From assembly GCA_036001225.1 (NCBI GenBank), contig DASYUM010000308.1, forward strand, positions 540-64,539: a DNA stretch of 64,000 nt. The letters run 5' to 3'. This DNA is from Candidatus Methylomirabilota bacterium (GTDB lineage: Bacteria > Methylomirabilota > Methylomirabilia > Rokubacteriales > DASRDR01). Below the pieces are notes generated by a model. That model was not told the DNA's origin, made no database searches, and worked only from the letters and a program-made list of their open reading frames with translations. Within the stretch, counting starts at the first letter, position 1. Each line of letters starts with the position of its first letter. Both the position numbers and the translations under genes were made by a program. Of this stretch, positions 671 through 29,291 are shown piece after piece.

Positions 671-1468
671 ATGACGAGCCGCCCGCCGCGCGTCGTCCAC
701 GGGCTGTTCCTGCTCCTCGTGGCGCTCCTGTTCCCCGGCTGCGCGGGTTGGCTGGCGCCCCCGCTCTCGGCCTGGTCGGCCGCGACCCCCCCGGGGGCGT
801 TCGAGGTCGGCCGCGACACGTTCGCGTTCCCCAACCAGATCCGGGCCGAACATCCGGAGCGCGCCGTCGACTTCGGCAACTACTGCATCATCATGGCGCG
901 GGCGGCCAGCCAGTTCTTCCGCTTCGCGCGCTTCGCCCCCGACGCGCCGCCGGTCTCGGACGCCGAGTACACGCGCCTGGCCCGGACGGTGATGAGCATC
1001 GGCGCCTGGGCGGGACCTCGGCCGCCCGAGCGACGGGTGGTAATTCCCGGCTACGCCGACCTCCACGCCCTCTCGCAGGCGCGGGAGTCGGCCGTCAAGG
1101 CGGCGTTCGACTCGAATACGCTCAGCATGTTCCACTGGCGAACGTGGCGGATCGTCCTGCCGCTGCTCCCCGGCCACCAGCGCCGGCTGGCCCGCGAGCT
1201 GGTCGAGGAATTGGCCGGCGGCCGGCCGGTGCCGCTGATGATCACCAACTTCCCCGACCCCGACCTCCTCAATCACGCCGTGCTGGTCTACGACTCCCGG
1301 CCGGGCGCGCGAGCGGTGGAGTTCTTCGCCTACGACCCGAACGATCCGACGACCCCGCTCGGCTTGCACTTCGACCCCGTCACGGGCAGCTTCTGGGTCG
1401 AGCCGCTGCCCTACAGCCCGCCGGGACGCATCCGTGCGTTCCGGCTCTACACCTCGCCCCTCCTCTAG
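671..1468 (+). CDS. Hypothetical lipoprotein (signal peptide + lipobox LFPGC), function unknown
   Basis: 265-aa ORF. The N-terminal hydrophobic stretch ends in L-F-P-G-C-A-G (lipobox-like). No domain recognised by eye. Confidence 0.45.
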   Translation: MTSRPPRVVHGLFLLLVALLFPGCAGWLAPPLSAWSAATPPGAFEVGRDTFAFPNQIRAEHPERAVDFGNYCIIMARAASQFFRFARFAPDAPPVSDAEYTRLARTVMSIGAWAGPRPPERRVVIPGYADLHALSQARESAVKAAFDSNTLSMFHWRTWRIVLPLLPGHQRRLARELVEELAGGRPVPLMITNFPDPDLLNHAVLVYDSRPGARAVEFFAYDPNDPTTPLGLHFDPVTGSFWVEPLPYSPPGRIRAFRLYTSPLL

Positions 1469-1640
1469 TGCGTACGCCGCCTACCGACGGGGCGAGGCCG
1501 GCCGCCCCGCCCCCCGGCCTCGTCGCGCCGGCCGTCGCTCCGCCCCGCACCTCGGGGGTAGTCGGCCGGCCGGCTCCTCGGCACCTTCGGTCCTCGGGTC
1601 CACGTCGTGATATCGCCCGACGTCTGGGAGGACGAGGGCG

Positions 1641-2846
1641 GTGAGCCCGCGCGCGGCTGAGCCGGTGGCGGTGACCGGTGCCGGCGTGGTCAGCCCGATC
1701 GGGCAGGACCTCGACGCGTTCTGGGCGGGCCTGGTCACTGGCGTGTCCGGGATCGCGGAGATCGAGCGCTTCCCGGTGGCCGACCTCCGGGTGACCCGAG
1801 GCGGCGAGGTGAAGAAGCTCCACCGCGTCGCCGAACTCACGCACGATGCGCGCCTGCCGGCCTGCCGGGCCTCGCGCTTCCTGATCCACGCCACCCGGGA
1901 GGCTCTCGCCCACGCCGGGCTGGCCGCCGATCCGCCCGAGCCGGCGCGGTTGGCGGTGGTGATCGGGACGGCGCTCGGCGGCATCGACGACGCCGCCCGC
2001 GCCCTGCGGGGTGACGGCGGGGTGCGGGCGCTGTGCGGCTCGCTCTACGATGGCCCCACCTGGAACCTCGCCCGCTGGCTCGACACCGAAGGGCCGGTGC
2101 TCACGGTGTCCACGGCGTGCGCCTCGGGGGCGACCAGCCTCGGCGTGGCGGCGGAGCTCATCCGGGCGGGGCGGGCCGACGTGGCGGTCGCCGGTGGCGT
2201 CGATGTCCTCTGCCGCTTCGTCCAGCGCGGCTTCAACGTGCTTCGCTCGCTCACCCGGGACCAGGTCCGTCCCTTCGACCGTCGGCGGAGCGGCATCCTC
2301 CTCGGCGAAGGCGCCGGCATCGTGGTGCTGGAACGCGCCGCCTGTGCCGCCGCCCGTGGTCGGGCGCCGCTCGGCTGGCTCCTCGGGCACGCCAGCACGG
2401 CCGACGGCGCCCACATCACGGCCCCCGACCCCGAGGGCCGGGGCCTCGCCCTCGCGATCCGGCAGGCGCTGGGCGAAGCCGGCCTCGGTCCGGACAGCGT
2501 GGAGTTCGTGAGCGCCCACGGGACCGGGACGCCCGCCAACGACCGGGTCGAGACCGACGTCCTCAAGCGGGTCCTCGGCCCGCGTGCCTACGCCGTCCCC
2601 GTCAACTCGATCAAGGCCCACCTGGGTCACACGATGGGAGCGGCGGCGACGCTGGAGGCGATCATGTGTCTGCTGGCCGGCCGCCACGGTCAGCTCCCGC
2701 CCACTCTCAACTACGGCGAGTCGGATCCCCACTGCGACCTCGACTGGGTCCCCAACGAAGCGCGGCGCCACCGGCCGCGGGTGAGCCTGTCCACCTCGCT
2801 CGGCTTCGGGGGCTGCAATGCGGCCCTCGTGCTGGCTGCCGCATGA
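1641..2846 (+). CDS. Beta-ketoacyl-ACP synthase (FabF/KAS II-like, type II FAS/PKS KS), active
   Basis: 401 aa. Active-site Cys in VSTACASG, the two catalytic His in SAHGTGT and IKAHLGHTMGAA, and C-terminal SLGFGGCNAALVL. GTG start with GGAGGA 10 nt upstream. Confidence 0.85.
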   Translation: MSPRAAEPVAVTGAGVVSPIGQDLDAFWAGLVTGVSGIAEIERFPVADLRVTRGGEVKKLHRVAELTHDARLPACRASRFLIHATREALAHAGLAADPPEPARLAVVIGTALGGIDDAARALRGDGGVRALCGSLYDGPTWNLARWLDTEGPVLTVSTACASGATSLGVAAELIRAGRADVAVAGGVDVLCRFVQRGFNVLRSLTRDQVRPFDRRRSGILLGEGAGIVVLERAACAAARGRAPLGWLLGHASTADGAHITAPDPEGRGLALAIRQALGEAGLGPDSVEFVSAHGTGTPANDRVETDVLKRVLGPRAYAVPVNSIKAHLGHTMGAAATLEAIMCLLAGRHGQLPPTLNYGESDPHCDLDWVPNEARRHRPRVSLSTSLGFGGCNAALVLAAA

Positions 2847-3823
2847 ACAGGGTGGCCTCGTCTGCCATCGCCGGCGTCCGGGCCGCCCACGCCCCGGCGC
2901 CGCGGATCGCGGGCGTCGGCCTCCTGACCGGCTGGGGCGAAGGCCCCGCGGCGCTCGCCCGGGCCCGAGGGAACACCCCGGCGTCGTTGCTGGCGGTGCC
3001 GACGCCGGCGCTCGGGGGGGAGCGGTTCCGCCGCGCCACCCGCGAGTGCCTGCTGGCGGCGGCCGCCGTGCGGGCGGCGACGGCCGAGGCGGGCCTCGAC
3101 GAGACGGCGCTGGCCGGTGAGCGGACGGGGATGCTCTACGCCAGCGCGACCGCCTATGCGGCGGCCAACCGCGCCTTCCTCGAGGACGAGGCGTCCACCA
3201 CGCTCCACTTTCCGTACACCGCGCCCAGCGCGGTGCCCGGCGAGGTGACCATCGCCTTCGGCATCCGGGGCCCCTACCTCAACCTGATGGGTGGCGGCCC
3301 GGCGGCGCTCCAGGCCCTCTGGTACGCCGCGCGGTGGCTGGCGGCCGGCCAGGTCGATCGGGTCCTCGTCCTCGCAGTCGAGACCGTGCACGAGGTCTGG
3401 GACCTCTTCGGCCGCGCGCGGCGGCTCTATCGCCGGCCGCTGGTCGAGGGGGCCGCCTGCCTCCTCCTCGAGCCGGGCGATGGGGCGTCGCTGGCCTGGG
3501 CGTCGGCGACGGCGCCCAGGACGGCGCGCCCCCACGCCGATCGTGTCGTGGGCGCAGTCCTCGACGCCGTCCTCGGGGACGGCACGCCGGCGACGGTGGC
3601 CCGGTGTTCGGGGACCCACGGGTTCGGGCGGGCCGAGGCGGCGGCGCTCGCCGGACGGCGGAGGTCGCCGGCCGTGGTGAGCGGGCCGGGCGAGGCGATG
3701 GCGTGCGGGCCACTCTTGGAACTCGCCGAGGCGCGGTCGCGCCGGGCGCCGGGACCCTGGCTGCTCACCGCTGCCTGGCGTAACGATTACAGCGCCCTGT
3801 GCTGGCCCACTCCGATGGCGTGA
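2843..3823 (+). CDS. KS-like protein lacking the catalytic Cys/His (chain-length-factor-like partner of the preceding KS)
   Basis: ATG at 2843 overlaps the upstream TGA (ATGA). 326 aa with a thiolase-fold-like N-terminus but no TACSSG, HGTGT or GH motifs. Confidence 0.6.
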   Translation: MNRVASSAIAGVRAAHAPAPRIAGVGLLTGWGEGPAALARARGNTPASLLAVPTPALGGERFRRATRECLLAAAAVRAATAEAGLDETALAGERTGMLYASATAYAAANRAFLEDEASTTLHFPYTAPSAVPGEVTIAFGIRGPYLNLMGGGPAALQALWYAARWLAAGQVDRVLVLAVETVHEVWDLFGRARRLYRRPLVEGAACLLLEPGDGASLAWASATAPRTARPHADRVVGAVLDAVLGDGTPATVARCSGTHGFGRAEAAALAGRRRSPAVVSGPGEAMACGPLLELAEARSRRAPGPWLLTAAWRNDYSALCWPTPMA

Positions 3824-3837
3824 AGCCGGGAGAGCCG

Positions 3838-4116
3838 ATGGACGAGCGCGCGATCCTCGACGAGTTGCGGGACATCATCGTCAAGCGGCTCAAGTTCGAT
3901 CCCAAGGTGGTCGCGGGCGTGACGTCCGAGACCCCGCTGCCGAAAGGGATCGAGAACTCCCTCGGCCTCGACTCCCTCGACTTCATCGAGCTGTCGATCG
4001 CCCTCGAGGAGCGCTTCGGGGTGGTCGTCCAGGAAGGCGAGCCGGTCGAGGCGCACTTCGCGACGCTGGGCTCGCTGGCGCGCTTCGTGCGCCTGTCCCA
4101 GGGCGGGCCTGCGTGA
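3838..4116 (+). CDS. Acyl carrier protein (discrete ACP)
   Basis: 92 aa with the phosphopantetheine-attachment motif LGLDSLDFIEL. GGGAGA RBS 6 nt upstream of the ATG. Confidence 0.8.
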   Translation: MDERAILDELRDIIVKRLKFDPKVVAGVTSETPLPKGIENSLGLDSLDFIELSIALEERFGVVVQEGEPVEAHFATLGSLARFVRLSQGGPA

Positions 4117-5327
4117 ACGACGTCGTCGTCACCGGCATCGGCGCGGTCAGCCCCTACGGGCTGGGCCGGGCGGCCTTCTGGGCCGGCCTGGCCGCCGGTC
4201 GCTGTACCCTCGCACCCCTGACCCTGTTCCCGACCGACGGCTTCCGCTGCCGAATCGCCGCCGAGGTCCCCCCGACGGTGACCTTGCGCGCCTCCGGGCG
4301 CCGGACGCGCGCCGACCGGCTGGCGATCGCCGCCGCCGACGAAGCCGTCGCCGACGCCGGGCTCCACCGGGCCGATCTCCGGCCGGCGGCGGTGGTGGTC
4401 GGCGGGATCGGTGGCGGCATGCTCGAGGCGGAGGCCTGGTACTGGCGCCTGCAGCGGGAAGGCGTGGACGACCCGCGGCTCCGCGGCGCGCTCCGCAGTG
4501 TCCTGCCATCGGCTCACGCCGAGATGCTGGCCCGTCGCTACGGCACCACCGGCCCCAAGGAAACCGTGGTGCTCGCCTGCAGCTCCGGCGGCGCCGCTCT
4601 CGGGATCGCGGCGGATCTGGTGCGGGCGGGGGAGACGCCGCTCGCCCTCGCCGGGGGTGTGGACGCCCTGACCCGGATCTGCTTCATGGGGTTCAACGCC
4701 CTGAAGCTCCTCGACCTCGAACCCTGTCGCCCCTTCGCCCGCGACCGCCGGGGCATGTCGCTCGGCGAGGGCGCCGGCTTCGTCGTCCTCGAAGAGGCCG
4801 CCCACGCGGCCGCCCGCGGGGCGCGCGCCTACTCGGCGCTGGCCGGCTTCGGGCTCACGACCGACGCCTACCACATGACGGCGCCCCACCCCGACGCCGA
4901 GGGAAGCGTCCGGGCCATGGTCGAGGCGCTGGAACACGCCCGGCTCCCCGCCGGGGCGGTCGGCTACGTCAACGCCCACGGCACCGGCACCGTGCAGAAT
5001 GACCGGGCGGAGGCGCTCGCGATCCGCAAGGTCTTCGGCGCCGAGGCCGTGCTCGTGAGCGCCAACAAGTCGTTGATCGGACACACCATGGCGGCGGCCG
5101 GCGCCCTGGAGGCGATCGCGACCGTTCTCACGCTCGTCCACGACCTGGTGCCCCCGACCGCCAACCTCGCCGAGCCGGATCCCGACATCCCCTTCGACTG
5201 CGTGCCGCTCACCGCGCGGCGGGCCCGGGTGGAGTGCGCCATGTCGAACTCCTTCGGCTTCGGCGGCCAGAACGTGAGCCTGGTGTTCCGGCGGGTGGCC
5301 GATCCTCGGCCGGCTGATGGCGGCTGA
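4113..5327 (+). CDS. Beta-ketoacyl-ACP synthase (second active KS)
   Basis: GTG start overlaps the ACP stop (GTGA). Active-site Cys in VLACSSGG, both His in NAHGTGT and NKSLIGHTMAAAG, and the MSNSFGFGGQNVSLVF C-terminus. Confidence 0.85.
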   Translation: MNDVVVTGIGAVSPYGLGRAAFWAGLAAGRCTLAPLTLFPTDGFRCRIAAEVPPTVTLRASGRRTRADRLAIAAADEAVADAGLHRADLRPAAVVVGGIGGGMLEAEAWYWRLQREGVDDPRLRGALRSVLPSAHAEMLARRYGTTGPKETVVLACSSGGAALGIAADLVRAGETPLALAGGVDALTRICFMGFNALKLLDLEPCRPFARDRRGMSLGEGAGFVVLEEAAHAAARGARAYSALAGFGLTTDAYHMTAPHPDAEGSVRAMVEALEHARLPAGAVGYVNAHGTGTVQNDRAEALAIRKVFGAEAVLVSANKSLIGHTMAAAGALEAIATVLTLVHDLVPPTANLAEPDPDIPFDCVPLTARRARVECAMSNSFGFGGQNVSLVFRRVADPRPADGG

Positions 5328-6552
5328 GGGGCCGCTCCGCGTCCTCATCACGGGCATTGGCAGCGTCAGCGCGCTCGGCGTCGGCGGCGCCGCCACGCTG
5401 ACCGCCGCCCTGGCTCGAGGAGCCTCCGGAATCCGGGCCGTCCGCGGCTTCGATACCGACGGGGCCGGTAGCCACCTGGGCGCGGAGGTCGAGGACCTCA
5501 GCCCGCACCTCGGCCCGGAGGAGGTCCGGCGGCTGGCCCGCGCCAGCCAGCTTGCTGTCATCGCCTGCCGGCTGGCCGTCGCCGACGCCGGTGTCGAGCC
5601 GCGGGGGCTGCCCGGGTTGGGCCTGGTGCTGGGCTCGGCGTACGGCGACTTCCGGTCGTCCGAGGCGTTCGCGCGCGGCTATCTCGGCCGGGGGCCGCTC
5701 GGGCTCTCGCCCGTCCTCTTCCCCAACACCGTGATGAACGCGATGGCGGCCCAGGCCGCGATCGCGGTCGGCGCCCAGGGGCCGATGCTGACGCTGAACC
5801 AGGACGCCATCGCCGGCGAGCTCGCGGTGGCCCGGGCCGCCCAGCTGATCGCGACCGGCCGCGCGCCGGCAGCGCTGGCCGGGGGGGTGGACGAGCTGTG
5901 CCCCGTTCTCTACCACGAGCTGGCTCGCCTCGGGACCAGCTCGCCGCGCGGGCACGGAGCCGAGGGGTGCTGGCCCTTCGATCGCCGCGCCAACGGGACG
6001 GTCCTGGGCGAGGGCGCGACGATCGTGGTCCTGGAGGCGGCCTCCAGCGCCCTGGCGCGCGGGGCCCGCGTCTATGCCGAGTTGGCCGGGGTCGCCACCG
6101 GGAACCTGCCCGCGGCCCCCCACGGCTTCCCGGCCCGCCGCCGCCGCGATCCGGTGGTGATCCGGCGCGCGTTGGCCCGGGCCCGGCTCGCCGCCGCCGA
6201 CGTGGACGCCGTCTACTGCACGGGGACCGGCGATCCCGCCGGAGACCGGTGCGAGCTGGACCTGATGGGCGCGGTATTCGAGGGGGCGCCCCGGGCGCGG
6301 CCGCTGCTGAGTGCCCTGACCCCGCTTGCCGGCGAACACGGCGGGCTGGGCGCGCTTCGCGTCGCCGCCGCCGCGACCGCGGTGGCCGGGGGCCCGCTGC
6401 CCGGCCTGCCGGACCTGGAGAGACCGGTGCGGCCGGACTGGGCCTTCGCGACCGGCGCGCCCCGCTCGTTGCCCGGCGCGGGGGCGATCATGGTCCACGG
6501 GCTGGCGCGAGGCGGTGGCCACGCCGCGCTCGTCTTGACGCGAGCCGCCTGA
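5317..6552 (+). CDS. KS-like/CLF-like protein with Gln in place of the active-site Cys (LNQDAIAG); catalytic His residues absent
   Basis: 411 aa. Its start overlaps the KS stop. It has thiolase-fold similarity, but Cys is replaced (NQD), HGTGT is replaced by YCTGTGD, and there is no GH motif. This is the KSbeta/CLF signature. Confidence 0.65.
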   Translation: MAAEGPLRVLITGIGSVSALGVGGAATLTAALARGASGIRAVRGFDTDGAGSHLGAEVEDLSPHLGPEEVRRLARASQLAVIACRLAVADAGVEPRGLPGLGLVLGSAYGDFRSSEAFARGYLGRGPLGLSPVLFPNTVMNAMAAQAAIAVGAQGPMLTLNQDAIAGELAVARAAQLIATGRAPAALAGGVDELCPVLYHELARLGTSSPRGHGAEGCWPFDRRANGTVLGEGATIVVLEAASSALARGARVYAELAGVATGNLPAAPHGFPARRRRDPVVIRRALARARLAAADVDAVYCTGTGDPAGDRCELDLMGAVFEGAPRARPLLSALTPLAGEHGGLGALRVAAAATAVAGGPLPGLPDLERPVRPDWAFATGAPRSLPGAGAIMVHGLARGGGHAALVLTRAA

Positions 6553-7307
6553 TGCCGCGCCTCGTCGCCGTCGTGCCGGTGTTCAACGAGGCGGCCACCG
6601 TCCCCGGCGTCGTGCGGCGGCTGGGCAAGCTCTGTCCGGTGATCGTGGTGGACGACGCGTCGACCGACGGCAGCGGCGCCGGCGCGGCCGCCGCGGGCGC
6701 CCGCGTCGTCCGCCTGCCGGCCCGCGGCGGCAAGGGGGCCGCCCTCCGGCTGGGCTTCGCGGAGGCGCTTCGGGCCGGTGCCGACGGGGTGGCGACCCTC
6801 GACGGCGACGGCCAGCACGACCCGGCCGAATTGCCACGCCTGATCGCCGCCGGCCGGCGCGTCCCCGAGGCGCTCGTCGTCGGCGACCGGCTCGGCGGAC
6901 TCGGCGACCGCATCCCGCGTGCGCGCCTCGCCGCCATCCGGATCGCCGACCGTTGGCTCGGCTGGCTCACGGGGATGCCGCTGCGCGACACCCAGTGCGG
7001 CTTTCGGCTCTACCCGGCAGTCTTTCTGCGGGCGGCTCGCCTGCGCGAAGAAGGCTTCGTGCTCGAGAGCGAAGCCCTCGTCGAAGCCGCCCGCCGCGGC
7101 TTCCCGCTGGTGTCGGTGCCGCTGCGGGCGATCTATCCGCCGGGGCGGGCCAGCCGCTTCCGCGGGCTCGCCGACGGCCTGCGGATCGGCCGCTATCTCG
7201 CCCGCGAGGTCGTGCGGGAGGCGGCGCGGCGGATCGCCGTCGAGCCGCGCGGCCGCCGCGTCCGGGTGGCCTGGCCACTGCCCGATGCCAGAGGCGGCGG
7301 TGGCTGA
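6552..7307 (+). CDS. Family 2 glycosyltransferase (DPM1/polyprenol-phosphate sugar transferase-like)
   Basis: ATG at 6552 overlaps the upstream TGA by 1 nt. Motifs VVPVFNEA...VVDDASTDGS...DGDGQHDP (DxD) are typical of GT2_2 / Dpm1-like enzymes. Confidence 0.75.
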   Translation: MPRLVAVVPVFNEAATVPGVVRRLGKLCPVIVVDDASTDGSGAGAAAAGARVVRLPARGGKGAALRLGFAEALRAGADGVATLDGDGQHDPAELPRLIAAGRRVPEALVVGDRLGGLGDRIPRARLAAIRIADRWLGWLTGMPLRDTQCGFRLYPAVFLRAARLREEGFVLESEALVEAARRGFPLVSVPLRAIYPPGRASRFRGLADGLRIGRYLAREVVREAARRIAVEPRGRRVRVAWPLPDARGGGG

Positions 7308-8583
7308 TCGCATCCGCGCCCGTTACGACGTCGCCATCGTCGGGGGCGGCCCCGCCGGCTCCACCGCGGCGACCTTGCTGGCCCGCGCCGGTCTCGACGT
7401 CGCCTGCTTCGAGCGGGAGCGCTTCCCCCGCTTCCACATCGGCGAGTCGCTCCTCCCGGCCTCCGTCCCGCTCTTCGACCGGCTGGGGCTGACGTCGCGG
7501 CTGGAGGGGGCCGGGTTTCTCCGGAAGTACGGCGCCGCCTTCATCGACGAGGCGGACGGCCGGCAGGTCTTCTTCAATTTCCGGCGAGGCCCGCACTGGG
7601 CCGACCACGCCTACAACGTCCCCCGGGCCGATTTCGACCGCCTGCTCCTCGATCATGCCGCCAAGGAAGGGGCGGCCGTCGTCGAGGGCGCCGAGGTCCA
7701 GTCGCTGGCGATCGAGCGCGACCGCGTGCGGCTGGAAGTGGCGACCGACGACGGCGGGCGTTATCCGGTAGAGGCGGCGTTCCTGGTGGATGCCAGCGGT
7801 CGCGACGCGGTGCTCGCCTCGCGGCTTGGCCGTCGGGAGCCCATGCCCAGTCTGGGCAAGGTCGCGCTCTTCGCCCATTACCGGGGCGCGGAGCGCTGGC
7901 TCGAGCGCCGGGAGGGCTACATCCGGATCTACCTCTTCGACCACGGCTGGTTCTGGTGGATCCCCTTCGCCGGCGACCTCACCAGCGTCGGCTGTGTCCT
8001 CCACCAGCGCGTGGTCAAGGCGCGCCAGGTCCGCCTGGAGCAGCTCTTCGAGGAGATGGTGGCCGCCTGCCCGAGCGTGGCCGCCGGTCTGGACGGTGCC
8101 ACCCGGACCACCGAGGTCTTGAGCGCGGCCAATTTCTCCTACCGGGGGACGCCGGCGGTCGGCGACCGCTTCGTCGCCCTCGGGGACGCGGTCACGTTCG
8201 TGGACCCCATCTTCTCGACCGGCGTCTACATCGCCATGCAATCGGCCGAGCTGGCCTGCCCGGCCATCGTGACCGGGTTCCGGCAGGGAGCGTTCCGCGC
8301 CTCGGCCTTCGACGGATATCGGCGCCGCATCGAGCGTGGCACCGGGCTCTTGTTCCGCTTCATCGACCAGTACTATGACCCTGCGTTCCTGGACGTCTTT
8401 CTCTCTCCGAGCCCACCGCAGATGTTGCGCGACGCCGTGGTGACGGTCCTGGTCGGGGGCGCCTTCCTCCACTATCCGCTCTGGCTGCGGGCCCGTCTGG
8501 CGGCGGTCTTCCTCGGGGCCGCCCTCCGGCGGCGGTCGCGCGCGCGGCAGGGATTGGCGGTCGAGTCGCGCCTGACGTGGTGA
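7285..8583 (+). CDS. FAD-dependent halogenase (tryptophan-halogenase family / geranylgeranyl-reductase fold)
   Basis: N-terminal Rossmann motif VAIVGGGPAGS. The flavin-halogenase signature WxWxIP is present as GWFWWIPF. The length (about 430 aa) fits. It overlaps the GT gene by 23 nt. Confidence 0.7.
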   Translation: MPEAAVADRIRARYDVAIVGGGPAGSTAATLLARAGLDVACFERERFPRFHIGESLLPASVPLFDRLGLTSRLEGAGFLRKYGAAFIDEADGRQVFFNFRRGPHWADHAYNVPRADFDRLLLDHAAKEGAAVVEGAEVQSLAIERDRVRLEVATDDGGRYPVEAAFLVDASGRDAVLASRLGRREPMPSLGKVALFAHYRGAERWLERREGYIRIYLFDHGWFWWIPFAGDLTSVGCVLHQRVVKARQVRLEQLFEEMVAACPSVAAGLDGATRTTEVLSAANFSYRGTPAVGDRFVALGDAVTFVDPIFSTGVYIAMQSAELACPAIVTGFRQGAFRASAFDGYRRRIERGTGLLFRFIDQYYDPAFLDVFLSPSPPQMLRDAVVTVLVGGAFLHYPLWLRARLAAVFLGAALRRRSRARQGLAVESRLTW

Positions 8584-9770
8584 GCGACCTGCGCCGGCTC
8601 TGGCCTCGCGGCTACGGCTTCGCCATCGCCGGCATCGCGGTGGGGATCGCCGGACTGGTCGCCCTCGGCGCTCTCGCCGAGCGGATCAGCCGCTTCATCG
8701 AGGGTGGCCATCGCTTCGTCCTCGGACAGATCTCGGTGGCCGGCGCCGGCATCGGCAGCGGCGCCGGCTTCACGGCCGGCGGCCTCCTCCCGCGTCGCAC
8801 GGTCGAGGCGATCGCCCGCGTGCCGGGCGTGCAGGTCGTCCAGCCCCAGGTCATGGTCCCGGTGGACCCGCGCAGCTCTCAGCTCTTCACGGTGAACCAG
8901 GAGCTGATCCTCGGCCTCGACCTGTCGGTCCCCATCCCCAACCGCAACTACCCCACGCTGCCCGTCGCCCGCGGGCGCTTCCTCGGCGCCGGCGATCGCG
9001 GCCGGGCGGTGGTCGGCGCCGACTTCGCCGCGGCGCGGGGATTGCGGATCGGGGACCGGGTCCGCCTCGGAGCCCGCGAGTTCGAGGTCGTCGGGATCCT
9101 CGAGCGCCTCCTCACCGCGCCCGATCGCTTCGCCTTCGTCCCGCTGGAGGACGCGCGCGACCTCTGGCTGGCCCTCGACCCTACCCTCCGGGTGCTGTTC
9201 GCGCCCGGCGGGCCGGTGGCGCGCGACGACCTCAACACCGGCGCCGCGGTGGGCTGGGCGCCCGGCGTGGATCCCGACGCGCTGGCCGCGCGGATCGCGC
9301 GCGAGGTGCCGGGGGTGAACGTGGTGCCTCCCGGCGAGGTGGCCCGCCAGCTCGCGTCCTCCACGACCTTCTTCACCTGGCTCATGGCCGGCGTGGGCGG
9401 GATCGGGCTCCTGATCGGCGGCCTCTCGCTCTCCAACACGGTCGCCGCCTCGACCTTCGAGCGGATTCGGGACTTCGGCATCAAGCAGGCTCTGGGCGCG
9501 ACCGATGTCCAGCTCTTCGGCGAGGTGCTCCGGGAGAGCCTGGTCGTGAGCCTCGCCGGCGGCGTGGTGGGGGCGCTCCTCGCTCTCGCCGCCGGGAGTG
9601 CGGTGGACGCCCGGGCCGCCCACGCCGGCCAGCAGCTCTTCTTCTTCTCCGGCCGCCTCTTCGGCTTCACGTTCGCGTTGGCTGCCGCCCTCGGCGCCAT
9701 CGCCGGCGCCTACGCCACCGCGCGCATCCTGCGGGTGCCGCCGGCGGAGGCCATCCGCCGGGGAGCTTAG
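8577..9770 (+). CDS. ABC transporter permease, FtsX/MacB/LolCE family
   Basis: 397 aa. One N-terminal TM helix, a large periplasmic domain, then 3 C-terminal TM helices (FtsX-like). GTG start overlaps the halogenase stop. Confidence 0.75.
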   Translation: MVSDLRRLWPRGYGFAIAGIAVGIAGLVALGALAERISRFIEGGHRFVLGQISVAGAGIGSGAGFTAGGLLPRRTVEAIARVPGVQVVQPQVMVPVDPRSSQLFTVNQELILGLDLSVPIPNRNYPTLPVARGRFLGAGDRGRAVVGADFAAARGLRIGDRVRLGAREFEVVGILERLLTAPDRFAFVPLEDARDLWLALDPTLRVLFAPGGPVARDDLNTGAAVGWAPGVDPDALAARIAREVPGVNVVPPGEVARQLASSTTFFTWLMAGVGGIGLLIGGLSLSNTVAASTFERIRDFGIKQALGATDVQLFGEVLRESLVVSLAGGVVGALLALAAGSAVDARAAHAGQQLFFFSGRLFGFTFALAAALGAIAGAYATARILRVPPAEAIRRGA

Positions 9771-9773
9771 ATC

Positions 9774-11270
9774 ATGGCGATGGACCACGACGTCCTGGTC
9801 GTCGGCGGAGGGAACGCCGCGCTCTGCGCCGCCCTGGCCGCCCGCGAGCGGGGGGCGCGCGTGCTCGTCCTGGAAAAGGCGCCCGAGGCCGAGCGGGGCG
9901 GGAACTCGCTCTTCACGGCCGGGGGCTTTCGCTTTCCCCACCGCGGCCTCGAGGATTTGCGGCGCGACGTGCTGGTCGATCTGACCCCGGCCGAGGCGGA
10001 CGCCGTCGAGGTGCCACCCTACCCGGAGGAGACGTTCTACGACGACCTCCTGCGGCTCACCGAGCACTGCGCGAATCCGGACCTGACCGATCTGTTGGTG
10101 CGGCGGGCCCGGCCGACCGTGGTGTGGATGCGCGGCCAGGGCGTGCGCTGGATTCTGATGCTCAACCGCCAGTCCTTCAAGGTGGGCGACCGCCACCACT
10201 TCTGGGGCGGCCTCCACGTCGAGGCGGTCGGCGGCGGCCAGGGCCTCGTCCAGTCGCTGTACGACCGGGCGGAGCGGCTCGGCGTGGCGGTGCTGTATGG
10301 CGTCGGGGCCCGGCGCCTTCTCCAGGACCGGCGGGGCGCCGTCACCGGCGTCGTCACCCGCGGGCCGGAGGGCTTCGAGGAGATCGCGGCCGGCGCGGTG
10401 GTCCTCGGCTGCGGGGGATTCGAGGCCAACCCCGAGTGGCGAGTCCGCTACCTCGGCCCCGACTGGGAGCTGGCGCGCGTGCGGGGAACGCGGCACAACA
10501 CCGGCGACGGGATCCGCATGGCGCTCGAGATCGGCGCCCAGCCCTACGGCCACTGGTCCTCCTGCCACGCCGTCCAGTGGGACGTCAACGCCCCCGAGTT
10601 CGGCGACCGCAAGGTCCTCGACCTCTTCCAGAAGCATTCCTACCCGCTGGGTCTCATCGTCAATGTCCGCGGCGAGCGGTTCGTGGACGAGGGCGCCGAC
10701 CTCCGAAACTACACCTACGCCAAGTACGGCCGCGAGATCCTGAAGCAACCGCTTCGCACCGCCTGGCAGCTCTTCGATCAGAAGGTCGTCCCCCTCCTCC
10801 GCGAGGAGTATCGGATTCGCGAAGTGACCAAGGTCGAGGCCGACACGCTGGAGGAGTTGGCGCGGAAGTGCGAGATCGACGCGGCCGGGCTCGGGCGGAC
10901 GGTTCACGCCTTCAACGCCGCCGTCCAGGACACGCCCGCCTTCAACCCGGCCGTCCTCGATGGCAAAGGCACCCGCGGGATCACGCCGCCCAAGTCCAAC
11001 TGGGCCCAGCGGCTCGACCGGCCGCCCTTCGTCGCCTTCGGCGTGACGTGCGGCATCACCTTCACCTTCGGCGGGCTCCGGGTCAACGGCGAGGCCGCCG
11101 TGCTCGACACCGAGGATCGCCCGATTCCCGGCCTCTACGCCGCCGGCGAGCTGGTGGGCGGGCTCTTCTACCACAACTACCCCGGCGGGGCGGGACTCAT
11201 GGCGGGGGCGACGTTCGGGAAGCTCGCCGGGGAGCAGGCGGCGGCATTCGTGGCGACCGCCAGTCGCTGA
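9774..11270 (+). CDS. FAD-binding flavoprotein of the TcuA / fumarate-reductase-flavoprotein-like family (putative C=C reductase or desaturase)
   Basis: VLVVGGGNAALCAAL dinucleotide motif. It has TcuA-like length and conserved blocks (GGFEANPEW, C-terminal GLYAAGE). Confidence 0.75.
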   Translation: MAMDHDVLVVGGGNAALCAALAARERGARVLVLEKAPEAERGGNSLFTAGGFRFPHRGLEDLRRDVLVDLTPAEADAVEVPPYPEETFYDDLLRLTEHCANPDLTDLLVRRARPTVVWMRGQGVRWILMLNRQSFKVGDRHHFWGGLHVEAVGGGQGLVQSLYDRAERLGVAVLYGVGARRLLQDRRGAVTGVVTRGPEGFEEIAAGAVVLGCGGFEANPEWRVRYLGPDWELARVRGTRHNTGDGIRMALEIGAQPYGHWSSCHAVQWDVNAPEFGDRKVLDLFQKHSYPLGLIVNVRGERFVDEGADLRNYTYAKYGREILKQPLRTAWQLFDQKVVPLLREEYRIREVTKVEADTLEELARKCEIDAAGLGRTVHAFNAAVQDTPAFNPAVLDGKGTRGITPPKSNWAQRLDRPPFVAFGVTCGITFTFGGLRVNGEAAVLDTEDRPIPGLYAAGELVGGLFYHNYPGGAGLMAGATFGKLAGEQAAAFVATASR

Positions 11271-11369
11271 GAGCCCGTGAAGGAATCGCCCCTTCCGTGT
11301 GAGCCGCGAGATACCCGGAGGGGGGGTCCGGGGGAGGAGCGCGCCGCTCCCCCCCGGCCCGACTGAGCG

Positions 11370-12041
11370 GTGCTGCGCGCCGTCGGGCTCCGCAAGACGT
11401 TTCGGGGTCCCGACGGCCGCGTCATCGAGGTGCTGCGGGGCTGCGACCTCACCCTGGCGCCCGGCGAGCACGTCGCGGTCGTCGGGCGCTCCGGCTCCGG
11501 CAAGTCCACGCTGCTCAATCTGCTCGGCTGTCTGGACCGCGCCGACGGCGGCGAGCTGTGGTTTGGCGACGCCGCCCTCACCGGCGCGGGCCGGCGAGCG
11601 CTGGCCCACTTCCGCGGCCATCAGCTCGGCTTCGTCTTCCAGGCCTTCAACCTGATCCCGTCGCTCACGGCCTGGGAGAACGTGCTCCTCGCCGCCCGCT
11701 ACGTCGGCCGGGACCGGACCCCGGCGACGCGGGCGGCGACCGCGCTCTTCGAGCGGCTGGGGATCGCCGAGCGCAAGGGCCACTACCCGCCGGCGCTCTC
11801 TGGCGGCGAGCAGCAGCGCGTGGCCTTTTGCCGGGCGGTGCTGAACGATCCCGCGGTGCTCCTCGCCGACGAGCCGACCGGCAACCTCGATGACGACAAC
11901 GCCCGCGTGATCCTGGACGAGCTGCGGTCGCGCGCGCGGACGGGTCGGGCGGCGGTCCTGCTGGTGACCCACAACGCCGACCTTGCCCGCGCCGCCGACC
12001 GGGTGCTCTACCTGGAGGACGGCCGGCTCGTCGCCGCCTGA
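11370..12041 (+). CDS. ABC transporter ATP-binding protein (LolD/MacB-type)
   Basis: Walker A GRSGSGKST, signature LSGGEQQRVA, Walker B LLADEPTGNLD, and an H-loop. Confidence 0.85.
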   Translation: MLRAVGLRKTFRGPDGRVIEVLRGCDLTLAPGEHVAVVGRSGSGKSTLLNLLGCLDRADGGELWFGDAALTGAGRRALAHFRGHQLGFVFQAFNLIPSLTAWENVLLAARYVGRDRTPATRAATALFERLGIAERKGHYPPALSGGEQQRVAFCRAVLNDPAVLLADEPTGNLDDDNARVILDELRSRARTGRAAVLLVTHNADLARAADRVLYLEDGRLVAA

Positions 12042-12061
12042 ACCGGCGCCGGACCGTCGGT

Positions 12062-12089
12062 CAGGAACTCGCCACCCGGCCGGTTCCTG
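12062..12089 (+). terminator. Stem-loop (caggaac-N14-gttcctg) just after the ABC ATPase stop; putative intrinsic terminator without U-tract
   Basis: A perfect 7-bp inverted repeat seen in the sequence. Confidence 0.3.
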
Positions 12090-12144
12090 GCCAGCGCGAC
12101 GGCCCGCCGCGTCGGTAAACCCTTGTCAGTTGCATGCTCCTGTT

Positions 12145-12160
12145 CTGGCATGCTGCGTGC
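12145..12160 (+). promoter_or_regulatory. Possible sigma54 (-24/-12) promoter upstream of the hybrid kinase gene
   Basis: CTGGCATGCTGCGTGCT has GG and GC elements at the canonical spacing (consensus YTGGCACGrNNNTTGCW). Confidence 0.25.
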
Positions 12161-12213
12161 TCTTTTCCCCGCCGTGCTCCAGACCCTGGACTCTGTTCGA
12201 CCGGCAGGATGTC

Positions 12214-14322
12214 ATGCGAAACCTTAAGGGGGCGCGCATCCTCGTCGTCGATGACGCCGACCGAGTGCGCGTGGTCATGGCGGAGATGCTCAGGGTCGCC
12301 GGGGCCGACGTGGCGGAGGCGGTCAGCGGCGAGGAGGCGCTCGGGCTGGCCGCCGGCTGGCGCCCCGACCTGGTCGTGCTCGATCTCGACTTGCCGGACC
12401 TGGACGGAGTCGAGGTCTGCCGCCGAATCAAGTCCGACCCCGCGACCGGGTCGACCCTCGTCCTCCTCCTCTCCGGCGTGTTTCTGGACGTGGCGGACCG
12501 GGTCCGGGGGCTCGAGGGCGGGGCCGACGGCTTTCTGACGAAGCCGGTCGAGCGGATGGAGCTGATGGCCACCGCCGCCGCCTTGCTCCGCTTGCACGAC
12601 AGCGAGCGCCGCCGGCGGGCGGCCGAGACCGTGGCCCGGGTGGCCCAGGCACTGACCGAGACCCTCGACGTGTCGGCGGTCGCCAACCGGATCGTGGAGA
12701 GCCTCCCGGCCCTGTTCGACCTCCGAACGGCAACCGTTCGCCTCTTGCAGCCGGACGGCTCGCTCCTCACCGTCGCGTCGGGCGGGCCGGCCTGCGAGCA
12801 TTACGAGGTCGGCCACGTCTGCCCGCCCGGAACCGGCGCCGCCGGCTGGGCGATCGCCGAGGGCGGGGCGGTCTGGGCCGCTGACCTGCTCGCCGAGCCT
12901 CGCATCCGGCTCACCGACGAGCAGCGGCAGCGGGCGGTGGCCTCGGCCAGCCGGGCCATCGTCGCGGTCCCCCTGCGGGTCAAGGGGCAGCTGCTCGGCG
13001 CCATCAGTCTGGCCGAAGAAACGAGCCGCACCTTCTCGGACGCCGATGTCGCGCTCCTGCAGACGTTTGCCGATCAGGCGGCGCTGGCGATCGAGAACGC
13101 GCGGCTCTACGAGGACGCCCGCCGAGCCTACCGGGAGCTGTCCGAGGCCCAACACCAGCTCCGGCAGTCGCAGAAGATGGAGGCGATCGGCCGGCTGGCC
13201 AGCGGGGTGGCGCACGACTTCAACAACCTGCTGACCGTCATCCGGGGCCGGAGCGAGCTCCTGCGGGCGCGGCTCGCCGCCGACGATCCCCTCTATCGCC
13301 ATGCCAGGCTGATCGAGACGACCGCCGAGCGGGCGGGGGCGCTCACCCACCAGCTGCTCGCCTTCAGCCGGAAACAGGTGCTCCAACCGAAGGTCCTCGA
13401 CCTCAACCAGGTTCTGGGCGGTATGGAGAAGATGCTGCGCCGGCTCATCGGCGAGGACATCGACCTGATCTTCGCGATGGATCCGGCCCTCGACCGGGTT
13501 CGGGCCGACCCCGCCCAGCTCGAGCAGGTGATCCTGAACCTGGTGGTGAACGCGCGGGACGCCATGCCCCACGGCGGCCGACTGGTCGTCGAGACGTCGA
13601 ACCTCCGGGTGGACGGTGAACCCGGCGGCGAGGCGCCGGGGTTGCAACCCGGCACCCACGTCATGCTGGCCGTCGGCGACAGTGGCGTCGGGATGGACGA
13701 GGAGACCCAGTCCCACGTGTTCGAGCCGTTCTTCACCACCAAGGAGCCGGGGACGGGGACCGGGCTCGGGCTCGCGACCGTCTACGGCATCGTGAAGCAG
13801 AGCGGGGGCGAGGTCGCCTTCGAAAGCGAGGTCGATCGGGGCACCACGTTCCGGATCTACCTGCCGGGGGTACAGGAACCGGCCGAGAGCGTCGCCGCCA
13901 GCCTGCCGCAGGTGAGCGCGCCGCGCGGCATCGAGACCATCCTCCTGGTGGAAGACGACGATGCGCTACGCGAGATGACCCGCGAGATGCTCGCCCTGTA
14001 CGGCTACCGCGTCATCGACGCGCGGCACCCCGGCGAAGCCTTGCTCGTCGCCGAGCGCCGCCCGGACCGGATCGACCTGCTGGTCACCGACATCGTCATG
14101 CCCCAGATGAACGGCTGTGAGCTGGCCGAGCGGCTCGTCGAGCTGCGCCCGAACCTGAGAGTCCTCTACATGTCCGGCTACGCCGACGAGACGGTCATCC
14201 GTCGGGCGGGCGTCAACGGGGCGCTCACCCTCCTCCAGAAGCCCTTCGCCGCCGGGACGCTGGCCCACAAGGTCCGCGAAGCCCTCGACGCCGCCCCCCG
14301 GCTGACCGGGGCGCGCCGCTAG
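12214..14322 (+). CDS. Hybrid sensor histidine kinase/response regulator (REC-GAF-HisKA-HATPase_c-REC)
   Basis: The N-terminal receiver has ILVVDD...[12 protein letters not shown]. It has a GAF-like middle, the H-box [10 protein letters not shown] boxes and a C-terminal receiver [11 protein letters not shown]...DIVMP. Confidence 0.8.
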
Positions 14323-14569: not shown

Positions 14570-15823
14570 ATGGGCGGAGTCCAGGGGACGCTGGTGGTCG
14601 CCAACATGCCGGGCGCGCTGACCGTGGTGGCGGGTCTCCCGCTGGTCGCGCGCGCGGTGCTCGAGCTGCGCGCGGCGGGCTACGCCGCGGTCACCGTCTT
14701 CGCCGGTCCCCAGGCCCGGCGGGTGGCGGCGCTGCTCGAGCCACGCTGCCCGGACGTGGCCGGCCTCGGCTCGCCGGACGAGGCGGCCGCCCTCGGCTGG
14801 CCGGAGCTCGTCCTCGTGGTGGCGGGCGACGTCCTCTTCGACCCCGCCGCGCTGGCGCCGCTCCTCGCCGCCGCCACGCCGGGCGGGGTCCACTTCGGGC
14901 AGGTGCCCGGAGCGCCGGGACCCGAGGTGCCGGCCGCGGTGTGCCCGGGGTCGGCCATCCCGCGCCTGCTGGCCGAGGCGAGCCGTGGTGGCGGGCTTCG
15001 CGTCGAGGGCCTTCGCCGCGTCGGCGGCGCGGCCGCGGGCGGGGTCCCGCTCACCGACGGCCTCCTCGTGCCCGCCGACCGGGCCCCGGCGCGGCGCGTC
15101 CTCGAGACGGCGCTTCTCGATCATCTGGCCCGGCGGACCAGCGCCAAGGACAGCTTCCTCGCCGCGCTCGTCGACCGCCGCCTGTCCCGGCCGCTGACGC
15201 GTCTCCTCCTCGGCTCGCCGGTGACGCCGTCTCAGATCACGGTGGTCAGTATCGCGCTCGGGCTCGCCGGGGCGGTGGGCCTGGCGACCATCTCCTACGC
15301 GGGCCGCCTCGCCGGCGTCGGCGCGTTGATCGCGTCGATCGTCCTCGACTGCGTGGACGGCGAGCTGGCGCGGGCCCGCTTCCAGCAGAGTGCGGCCGGC
15401 GCCCGGCTCGACGTGCTCGGCGATTACGTGGTCCACCTCGCGGCGTTCCTCGGTCTCGCCATCGGCCTCGCCCGGCAGGGGCTGCCGCCGGGAGGCGTCT
15501 GGGCCGCGGCCGGCCTCGTCGCCGGCGTCGGGGCCGCCATGGCCACGATGCACGCGATCTTCGTCCGGCCGGCGCTCCGCGGGGGGGGCGACCTCCACTG
15601 GAGCGGCGAGCCAGCCGGGTTGCCCGACACGCCCCTGACCGCGATCGTCGAGAAGCTCGCCAGCCGCGACTACACGTATCTACTCCTCGTCCTGGCCCTG
15701 CTCGGACACCTCGAGTGGTTCCTCTACGCGGCGGCGGTCGGCTCGTGGGTCTTCGTCGCCGGCGTGCTGGGCTATCGAGGCTATCAGCGGCTGGCCCTGC
15801 GCCGACCGGTGGTCTCGCAGTGA
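14570..15823 (+). CDS. Bifunctional-type protein: N-terminal MobA-like nucleotidyltransferase-like domain fused to a CDP-alcohol phosphatidyltransferase (IPCT/DIPPS-like architecture)
   Basis: The C-terminal half carries the CDP-OH_P_transf motif D-C-V-D-G-E-L-A-R...G-A-R-L-D-V-L-G-D plus multiple TM helices. The N-terminal 180 aa resemble a degenerate NTP-transferase fold. Confidence 0.6.
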   Translation: MGGVQGTLVVANMPGALTVVAGLPLVARAVLELRAAGYAAVTVFAGPQARRVAALLEPRCPDVAGLGSPDEAAALGWPELVLVVAGDVLFDPAALAPLLAAATPGGVHFGQVPGAPGPEVPAAVCPGSAIPRLLAEASRGGGLRVEGLRRVGGAAAGGVPLTDGLLVPADRAPARRVLETALLDHLARRTSAKDSFLAALVDRRLSRPLTRLLLGSPVTPSQITVVSIALGLAGAVGLATISYAGRLAGVGALIASIVLDCVDGELARARFQQSAAGARLDVLGDYVVHLAAFLGLAIGLARQGLPPGGVWAAAGLVAGVGAAMATMHAIFVRPALRGGGDLHWSGEPAGLPDTPLTAIVEKLASRDYTYLLLVLALLGHLEWFLYAAAVGSWVFVAGVLGYRGYQRLALRRPVVSQ

Positions 15824-29226: not shown

Positions 29227-29291
29227 CCTCGGCCCGCCTCCTCCCTGCGTCCTAGGGCTGCTCGGTTCTCGGCCACGGCTAGGGCAATGCC

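Follow-up and report, generated by a model that had tools for sequence, protein, structure and literature searches.

A Methylomirabilota operon that joins paired FabF-like ketosynthases to a putative lipid-anchoring module of the aryl-polyene type

What is assembled by a locus that encodes two ketosynthase (KS) pairs, a single acyl carrier protein (ACP), a glycosyltransferase, a halogenase and an exporter side by side, and to which known pathway is such a set of enzymes related? These questions are raised by positions 671-12041 of a 64,000-nucleotide stretch of contig DASYUM010000308.1 from a Candidatus Methylomirabilota bacterium; this whole stretch is referred to here as the window. An earlier reading of the letters alone (the sequence-only reading) attributed to the locus the logic of aryl-polyene (APE) clusters, with a different composition. 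Our analysis favours, at somewhat better than even confidence, a Methylomirabilota-specific operon for a specialised envelope glycolipid, in which FabF-derived type II chain elongation would be combined with the lipid-anchoring module of aryl-polyene lipids (APELs).

The evidence for the anchoring module comes from a phmmer comparison of all cluster proteins with 18 Ape proteins of Escherichia coli CFT073. The family 2 glycosyltransferase (GT2) of the cluster aligned with residues 10-229 of ApeJ at 33.6% identity, and an acyltransferase of the cluster family, which related loci carry, aligned with residues 362-549 at 31.2% identity. By sequence, ApeJ (558 aa) is a fusion of a GT2 and an LpxL-like acyltransferase that are separate genes here. 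Because ApeJ has this fused layout and the ACP resembles ApeE (30% identity at E 5e-13) and the AmcB model more closely than AcpP, the cluster appears to share the lipid-anchoring module of APELs. In the study that determined the structure of these lipids, ApeJ was proposed from deletion mutants to transfer N-acetylgalactosamine onto a phosphatidyl intermediate, after which the sugar is acylated with the ApeE-bound chain (Grammbitter et al., bioRxiv 10.1101/2020.12.19.423268). By analogy, this proposal may serve as the best available functional anchor for the trio of GT2, acyltransferase and ACP. On NCBIfam models, GT2 scored about 75 bits with both PpgS and AglJ. An HpnI/HpnB role for this enzyme was also considered and rejected, as there was no HpnI match and HpnB reached 22 bits.

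Beyond this module the resemblance to the ape set soon ends. The phmmer matches were limited to ApeO/R, ApeE and ApeJ, and ApeC, ApeF, ApeI, ApeP, ApeQ, ApeM, ApeH, ApeK, ApeB, ApeD, ApeL and ApeN found no match among the cluster proteins. The APE core set that was applied, namely ApeO and ApeR (KSs), ApeC (chain-length factor, CLF), ApeE and ApeF (ACPs), ApeI and ApeP (dehydratases, DHs), ApeQ (ketoreductase, KR) and ApeM (transporter), is therefore incomplete in the cluster. That the locus is a canonical APE, xanthomonadin or flexirubin cluster which merely looks different is thus very improbable and largely refuted. The locus does share domains like those of ApeJ, an ACP like ApeE and a KS accompanied by a short dead partner, and halogenases occur in xanthomonadin and flexirubin loci; however, homologues of ApeH, ApeI/P, ApeQ, ApeK, ApeB, ApeM, ApeL/N and ApeD were found in none of about 20 related loci, the KSs are closer to FabF than to ApeO/R, and the first dead partner has no match to ApeC. 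The notion of APE-like logic with a different composition is upheld by the KS/dead-partner pairs, the dedicated ACP, the GT2, the exporter and the homology to ApeJ and ApeE, together with the absence of the rest of the ape set.

The elongation enzymes were assessed by aligning the four KS-like proteins with E. coli FabF (reference positions C163/H303/K335/H340/F400). All five residues are kept in KS1 and KS2, which are 44% identical to each other; both are predicted to be catalytically competent, and each appears to be translationally coupled to an inactive KS-like partner, as judged from the 4-nt overlap of KS1 with KSb1 (ATGA) and the 11-nt overlap of KS2 with KSb2. The partner KSb2 carries Ala/Thr/Thr/Glu/Arg at the reference positions, with D/A/G/T at the Cys position in orthologues, and its top two matches in the PDB are Thermus thermophilus FabF and, second-best, the anammox dead partner amxFabFmut (9s5h_C). 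In KSb1, Gly replaces the Cys (MGGGPAAL) and the His region is missing, and all orthologues have Gly or Ala at the Cys position. Sequence and profile searches of KSb1 against solved structures gave weak matches to the KS N-domain and none to a CLF or ApeC; its AlphaFold2 (AF2) model (predicted local distance difference test, pLDDT, 73) retrieved the shortened CLFs AntE and Iga12 and the actinorhodin CLF (act CLF) as top Foldseek matches. Each pair thus presents the arrangement that typifies type II polyketide synthases (PKSs), with an active KS (Cys-His-His) beside a homologous subunit that lacks the Cys. A Gln in place of the active-site Cys, associated with decarboxylative priming by CLFs, is absent from KSb1, KSb2 and the orthologues examined. 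The sequence-only reading had assigned such a CLF-type Gln to the second dead partner, but the Cys position is occupied by Ala; the Gln lies two residues upstream in the motif NQD[A]IAG, at a position that is E/Q/A in orthologues and hence not conserved.

Could these enzymes simply be copies of the housekeeping FabF/FabB that serve primary fatty-acid synthesis? By sequence, KS1 and KS2 do match FabF enzymes best, at about 250-300 bits compared with about 150-170 bits and 31-33% identity for ApeO/R. However, their scores on the fabF equivalog TIGR03150 (330.6 and 351.5) fall well short of the cut-off of 493.75, each KS is paired with a dead partner, and the ACP is not AcpP-like. There is also no fab context, given that fabD, fabG, fabZ, fabI and fabH are missing from the window, and the conserved operon partners are GT2, acyltransferase, halogenase and exporter. 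We consider this explanation, which the sequence-only reading had raised as a threat to novelty, hardly tenable. A cispentacin-type system built on AmcF and AmcB was examined as well and rejected, because the respective scores (267 against 325, and 42 against 80) were below the cut-offs and no AmcH-type loader or other amc genes were found.

A different relationship is suggested by solved structures. The best PDB match of KS1 was amxFabF2 (9s5h_B, 278 bits), and those of KS2 were T. thermophilus FabF (299 bits) and amxFabF2 (280 bits). The anammox proteins amxFabF2 and amxFabFmut have been shown to assemble into a functional heterodimer of the KS/CLF-like kind, by which malonyl-ACP is decarboxylated (bioRxiv 10.64898/2026.05.19.726425), and this pair therefore provides a direct biochemical precedent for FabF-derived active/dead pairs outside classical PKSs. 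Rules of the antiSMASH kind might even label the locus a ladderane-type pathway resembling anammox Cluster I, the more so as a gene for a B12-dependent radical S-adenosylmethionine (SAM) protein lies downstream. Such an assignment is scarcely credible: the radical-SAM protein is an HpnJ equivalog (TIGR03471, 778 bits against a cut-off of 578) and falls far short on the ladderane model TIGR04072 (83, with a cut-off of 360), homologues of amxFabZ and of the phytoene desaturase are lacking, and T. thermophilus FabF scores as well as amxFabF2. The KS pair alone is shared with anammox ladderane Cluster I.

Because the window has a G+C content of about 73%, raw lists of open reading frames (ORFs) were not trusted; genes were called from third-position GC (GC3) and inspection of start codons, and were identified by Pfam and NCBIfam profile searches of the window proteins. 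GC3 frame analysis gave eleven co-oriented genes, all on the plus strand (Table 1), which are intact, have a strong coding GC3 signal and keep their catalytic residues. The profile searches confirmed the proposed content (KS, dead partner, ACP, KS, dead partner, GT2, halogenase, FtsX permease, TcuA-like protein and ABC ATPase), with PF00109/PF02801, PF04820, PF00535 and PF02687 all matched in the cluster. Two statements of the sequence-only reading on layout needed revision. Packing is tight, as claimed, but most junctions are not overlaps of 1-4 nt: there are overlaps of 4, 4, 11, 1, 23 and 7 nt and gaps of 14, 3 and 99 nt. The lipoprotein gene, placed just upstream of the cluster in that reading, is present with its lipobox but does not lie outside the unit, since it is a conserved member with which the unit begins at 671. 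A scan of the window for promoters and terminators was uninformative at 73% G+C.

Table 1. Features of the cluster and its recurrent neighbours in the window
Feature	Position	Strand	Assignment and remarks
g1 lipoprotein	671-1468	+	LFPGC lipobox; DUF8321/DUF8322; first gene of the unit
Acyltransferase relic	1565-1620	+	LpxL/PatA-family, like the ApeJ C-domain; between g1 and KS1
KS1	1641-2846	+	PF00109 + PF02801; FabF-like ketosynthase with active-site set
KSb1	2843-3823	+	326 aa; KS N-domain alone recognisable; dead KS-like partner
ACP	3838-4116	+	PF00550; DSL serine
KS2	4113-5327	+	Second FabF-like ketosynthase with active-site set
KSb2	5317-6552	+	Full-length dead KS-like partner
GT2	6552-7307	+	PF00535; Dpm1/PpgS/AglJ-like; homologous to ApeJ N-terminal domain
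Halogenase	7285-8583	+	PF04820 (Trp_halogenase family), 113 bits against a cut-off of 21
Permease	8577-9770	+	PF12704 (MacB_PCD) + PF02687 (FtsX); type VII
TcuA-like flavoprotein	9774-11270	+	FAD_binding_2; NF006130
ABC ATPase	11370-12041	+	PF00005; partner of the permease
Recurrent neighbours	14570-18314	+	NTP-transferase/CDP-alcohol phosphatidyltransferase fusion, HpnL-like membrane protein, HpnJ radical-SAM protein

How widely is this arrangement conserved? A scan of one genome per GTDB species yielded 19 loci, whose layout was read from tblastn searches with the proteins of the window and, for long contigs, from called genes. The order lipoprotein-acyltransferase-KS1-KSb1-ACP-KS2-KSb2-GT2-(halogenase)-FtsX-(TcuA-like)-ABC is shared by these 19 GTDB species representatives, and its recurrence in about 20 related genomes, far beyond chance, bears out the synteny that the sequence-only reading had suggested looking for. 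All 16 taxon-labelled loci belong to Rokubacteria/Methylomirabilota, and the other three of the 19 are labelled 'uncultured bacterium'. The ACP serine motif GLDSLDFIE is kept in all 22 loci. One distant member (L025/L026) carries the entire cluster, including the halogenase, at 40-63% identity to the window; as its GlmM matches a 'Candidatus Rokubacteria' protein at 91% identity, the cluster extends to deeply branching lineages of the phylum. The KSb1 family is small. More than 800 homologues were found, essentially all from unnamed metagenomes or Rokubacteria/Methylomirabilota, and one protein from a metagenome-assembled Methylomirabilota genome at NCBI is 100% identical. An exhaustive profile search of 1.84 billion proteins returned only 34 representatives at E<=1e-30, which came without taxonomy and many of which are fragments. 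The operon has to date been found only in Methylomirabilota (Rokubacteria).

In the literature searched on Methylomirabilota/Rokubacteria in connection with aryl polyenes, ladderanes or hopanoids, and on type II PKSs with a halogenase and a glycolipid, no description of the cluster was found, nor was any characterised cluster with such a gene set. All of its parts come from known families, and its logic as a whole is like that of APE clusters; it would thus be a new variation on a known theme and not a category of its own.

Departures from the common layout were also observed. The reduced cluster of one Rokubacteria genome (L016, 8700-15600) reads KS1-KSb1-ACP-KS2-KSb2-FtsX-ABC and has no lipoprotein, acyltransferase or GT2; genes for a branched-chain amino-acid transporter seem to abut its KS1, as judged from ORF positions and the layout of the other loci. 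In L025 (13462-14565), GT2 has 367 aa with a C-terminal extension, and KSb2 has just 336 aa, so both dead partners can be of the short type. A contig of 52% G+C with Planctomycetota-like PSCyt, PSD1 and DUF1501 neighbours (L027, 8728-11524) holds a KS, a remote KSb1-like partner (333 aa), an 81-aa ORF and no other cluster genes. A GtrA-like gene and one for a reductase of the Old Yellow Enzyme type adjoin them, and the arrangement may represent a minimal relative of the system.

A conspicuous feature of the cluster is its lack of reductive enzymes. The cluster and its surroundings in the window encode no KR, DH, enoylreductase, thioesterase (TE) or ligase. The sole short-chain dehydrogenase/reductase (SDR) gene of the window (29283-30047) lies among ABC transporters and is unrelated; KR and DH genes are likewise missing from all of the approximately 20 loci. 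The absence of a ketoreductase, dehydratase, thioesterase or ligase, stated in the sequence-only reading for this locus, thus extends to its relatives, and for the polyene product proposed in the same reading there is no evidence.

Reduction might be borrowed, as in rhizobia, in which a special ACP, paired FabF paralogues and an acyltransferase of family PF03279 build very-long-chain fatty acids (VLCFAs) with reduction supplied by fatty-acid synthesis of type II (FAS II) (PMC5613085). The locus might accordingly serve a VLCFA or other special fatty acid destined for lipid A or a lipopolysaccharide-like glycolipid, after the fashion of acpXL-fabZXL-fabF1XL-fabF2XL-lpxXL, possibly with a hopanoid link like that of the hopanoid-bearing lipid A (HoLA) of Bradyrhizobium. 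The three kinds of parts just named are shared, the KSs are FabF-like, and genes for HpnJ and HpnL-like proteins are recurrent neighbours. We nonetheless regard this explanation as unlikely. A FabZXL-type dehydratase gene occurs in no locus, so the AcpXL/LpxXL gene set is not present. The acyltransferase family scores best on the phosphatidylinositol mannoside (PIM) acyltransferase model (91 bits) and aligns with the C-terminal domain of ApeJ, whereas LpxL models reach at most 56 bits; and the rhizobial system has no use for the conserved GT2, halogenase, MacB-type pump or papain-fold lipoprotein.

The acyltransferase (PF03279, LpxL/PatA-family) is itself the point at which the window deviates most from its relatives. 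It is present in all informative loci except the window and L016, as a rule between the lipoprotein gene and KS1. In the window, the spacer between g1 and KS1 measures 172 nt and contains a 56-nt relic with 82% nucleotide identity to the middle of the acyltransferase gene of L010; the relic encodes AGRLLGTFGPRVHVVISPD, and its L010 counterpart encodes AGRLLGTFGRRVHVVMAPE. No other acyltransferase copy was found within the 64-kb window. The same g1-172 nt-KS1 junction is present in three independent assemblies from other samples (L028, L029 and L030), so the deletion is real in the population and not an assembly artefact. A conserved acyltransferase has thus been deleted in the window genome, which the sequence-only reading overlooked. 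In L004 (4768-7133), a close relative of the window, the acyltransferase has been relocated directly 3' of the ACP, with about 1.5 kb between it and KS2 that includes a 412-aa ORF (5606-6844).

The deletion invites the idea that the locus in the window genome is decaying or has been rewired, with anchoring disabled and a free or ACP-bound acid put to another fate, or with pseudogenisation under way. The relic, the lack of a second copy in 64 kb and the junction seen in three assemblies speak for it, and L016 shows that further reduced versions exist. However, all eleven remaining genes are intact, with catalytic residues kept and strong coding GC3, and the relocation in L004 means that a copy may sit elsewhere in the genome. 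Decay or rewiring is therefore given only a small share of our confidence.

Two of the genes in the window are accessory rather than core: of 19 informative loci, 9 carry the halogenase gene and 4 the TcuA-like gene, the latter 4 being the window and its three closest relatives (L004, L010 and L012). The halogenase is probably ancestral, with a loss in one subclade. Its best PDB matches are ChlB4, Mpy16, PltA, CmlS and CndH (213-182 bits), which act on substrates bound to carrier proteins. The expected motifs are all in place: IVGGGPAGS (GxGxxG), FLRKYG with the catalytic Lys, GWFWWIP (WxWxIP), HIGES with the Glu, and the second FAD motif GDAVTFVDPIFSTG. The Lys, WxWxIP, GES and second FAD motif are kept in all nine orthologues. 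These residues point to a genuine flavin-dependent halogenase of the carrier-protein-substrate type, and the concern that it might be a generic FAD monooxygenase without Lys and Glu is dispelled by the Lys of RKYG and the Glu of HIGES.

The TcuA-like flavoprotein passes the model NF006130 (590 bits against a cut-off of 369) but falls below the cut-off of TIGR02485 (284 against 373). Matches in the PDB include flavocytochrome c fumarate reductase, KstD and urocanate reductase, and the sequence is consistent with reduction or desaturation of a C=C bond next to a carbonyl. TcuB and TcuC are not among the annotated genes of the window. The gene is a lineage-specific insertion between permease and ATPase.

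Export would be handled by the permease, which is conserved in all loci, and the ABC ATPase. The permease gave weak matches to ADOP, MacB and FtsX models and none to LolC or LolE, and it is the only permease gene of the cluster. For the ATPase, the best NCBIfam models were LolD (TIGR02211, 194 against a cut-off of 307.75), MacB, YbbA and DevA, none of which reached its cut-off. A membrane-fusion protein (MacA/DevB) is missing from the cluster. The exporter had been described as LolCDE-like, and this holds at the level of the MacB/FtsX superfamily; with one permease and a subthreshold LolD, it is not a Lol system, for which LolC plus LolE or LolF and LolD above the cut-offs would be expected. 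The lipoprotein g1 is predicted to adopt a papain-like fold with invariant Cys, His and Asp, and may thus be an exported papain-fold Cys-His-Asp enzyme. A local Pfam search of this protein gave no match; its DUF8321/DUF8322 labels come from precomputed annotations.

Downstream, the cluster is followed by hopanoid-type genes, which were overlooked in the sequence-only reading. The trio listed last in Table 1, or part of it, recurs 0.1-2.5 kb 3' of the ABC gene in seven other loci (L007, L009, L011, L013, L014, L017 and L020). These genes are recurrent neighbours and not proven members of the cluster. The HpnL-like protein scored 145 against a cut-off of 196, and the annotation of the window includes no shc, hpnH, hpnI or hpnK. 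A gene for a hybrid histidine kinase (receiver-GAF-HisKA-HATPase-receiver; 11983-14322) separates the ABC ATPase gene from the trio; its TTG start overlaps the ABC gene by 59 nt, and it occupies this position in no other locus. Upstream of the cluster is a gene of the dihydrodipicolinate-synthase family (1-561); in L030 (1133-2461) this gene is called with a 442-aa product that has an N-terminal B12-binding domain, an unusual fusion. Elsewhere, the window encodes ABC transporters of the sugar type, proteins like those of inositol catabolism, and unrelated metabolism. The transporter sets (19636-49509) consist of solute-binding proteins, fused permeases of unusual length (about 730-740 aa) and TOBE-domain ATPases, and the same region encodes IolD-like (thiamine diphosphate enzyme), IolE/IolI-like (xylose-isomerase barrel), IolG-like (GFO_IDH_MocA), PfkB and creatininase-family proteins and one SDR.

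What product, then, might the operon make? In the pathway proposed for the envelope glycolipid, the dedicated ACP would be loaded with malonyl by the housekeeping FabD, and KS1/KSb1 and KS2/KSb2, acting as KS/CLF-like heterodimers, would build a chain of defined length on it; short chains may be primed or extended by one pair and brought to the set length by the other. Keto-reduction and dehydration would be borrowed from housekeeping FAS II, or the chain would be left partly unreduced. Where present, the halogenase would act on an electron-rich ACP-bound intermediate (beta-keto/enol or aromatised), and the TcuA-like flavoprotein would provide a lineage-specific tailoring step in which a C=C bond is reduced or introduced. 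GT2 would form a glycosyl-(phospho)lipid acceptor, whose sugar would receive the ACP-bound chain through the acyltransferase, in the manner suggested for ApeJ/ApeE. Passage of the lipid from the inner towards the outer membrane, or its processing, would then fall to the MacB-type pump, perhaps together with the lipoprotein. In the window genome, the chain may be off-loaded by another acyltransferase encoded elsewhere, or the pathway may be truncated.

Several points weigh against this proposal. Identity to ApeJ and ApeE is just about 30-34%, and by sequence GT2 appears equally like polyprenyl-phosphate glycosyltransferases, such that the acceptor could be polyprenyl phosphate and not a phospholipid. 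The GT2/acyltransferase module is not indispensable, as the window lacks the acyltransferase and L016 lacks GT2, acyltransferase and lipoprotein. Formation of heterodimers, and the pairing of KS1 with KSb1 or otherwise, are suggested by adjacency and analogy. KSb1 has no detectable similarity to ApeC, and its AF2 model is of only moderate quality, with the other four models poor. A flippase step is missing, because we know of no MacB-type pump that flips lipids across the inner membrane. The cluster also encodes no flavin reductase for the halogenase.

A bolder version of the envelope-glycolipid reading, which we offer as a speculation with a low chance of being right, is a new class of outer-envelope lipid. 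Its FabF-derived chain, non-reduced or partly reduced (beta-keto/enol or resorcinol/pyrone-like), would be assembled by two KS/CLF-like heterodimers and halogenated on the ACP. A split module of the ApeJ type would then join the chain to a glycosyl-lipid through an ester bond, and export would fall to a MacB-type pump in concert with an extracytoplasmic papain-fold transacylase. Because HpnJ, HpnL-like and CDP-alcohol-transferase genes recur as neighbours, a conjugate of hopanoid and sugar could serve as acceptor. In that event, a halogenated acyl-bacteriohopanepolyol or an analogue of APELs would result, and with it a candidate biomarker for this soil phylum.

Methylomirabilota/Rokubacteria are abundant, uncultivated bacteria of soil and subsurface, with an envelope chemistry that has scarcely been described. 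As the cluster is conserved across the phylum, including its deep branches, a structural or protective envelope lipid is likelier than a sporadic secondary metabolite. The locus suggests that the ApeJ anchoring module exists as two genes, open to combination with KS/dead-partner pairs of the FabF type and an exporter of the MacB type. Such a split module would widen the definition of APE-like lipid pathways and offer a natural system for dissecting ApeJ. In addition, the accessory halogenase would allow the product to be traced in environmental lipidomes by mass spectrometry, through a Cl/Br isotope pattern, and the natural deletion of the acyltransferase would provide a ready-made comparison.

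Set beside known systems, the operon resembles different precedents in different parts. With anammox Cluster I it shares a FabF-derived active KS, an adjacent FabF-derived subunit without the Cys-His-His triad and a dedicated ACP; identity is moderate, however, and like that to ordinary FabF. The operon also lacks amxFabZ, the phytoene-desaturase-like enzyme and the ladderane-type B12-dependent radical-SAM protein, and has two pairs, one with a much shortened partner, linked to GT2, acyltransferase, exporter and halogenase. The rhizobial VLCFA cluster has in common with it a special ACP, two FabF paralogues, a PF03279 acyltransferase and, as predicted for the operon, reliance on housekeeping reductases and an envelope lipid as product, which in Bradyrhizobium is linked to hopanoids. 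It differs in that FabZXL is missing here, GT2, halogenase, ABC pump and lipoprotein have no counterpart there, and the acyltransferase is nearer to PatA and the ApeJ C-domain than to LpxL, as indicated by model scores and not by direct comparison with the rhizobial proteins.

The exporter shares with the type VII systems MacB, LolCDE and DevCA an FtsX-type permease with a periplasmic MacB_PCD domain and a separate LolD/DevA-like ATPase, but has a single permease instead of LolC plus LolE, no MacA/DevB, and scores below the cut-offs of all specific models. Likewise, the halogenase agrees with the carrier-dependent enzymes PltA, Mpy16, Bmp2, ChlB4, CndH and CmlS in length (about 430 aa), in its motifs (GxGxxG, Lys, WxWxIP and GDAxxFxDPxxSxG) and in its match scores (180-213 bits); unlike these, it has no pyrrole- or tyrosine-forming nonribosomal peptide synthetase as partner and is set in a KS/ACP lipid cluster.

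The APEL clusters of E. coli CFT073 (apeA-R) and Xenorhabdus doucetiae offer the fullest comparison. On the side of differences, the KSs here are FabF-like and not ApeO/R-like and form two KS/dead-partner pairs with one ACP; the 4-hydroxybenzoic acid ligase, KR, DH, TE, methyltransferase and PlsC-type ApeD are missing; a MacB-type ABC pump takes the place of export by MMPL, LolA and DUF3261 proteins; and a papain-fold lipoprotein and an optional halogenase are added. On the side of likeness, each system includes a type II KS and its short dead partner, an ApeE-type ACP, GT2 and LpxL-like acyltransferase domains (fused in ApeJ, separate here) and an envelope export module with a lipoprotein, and from both a cell-bound lipid would be expected.

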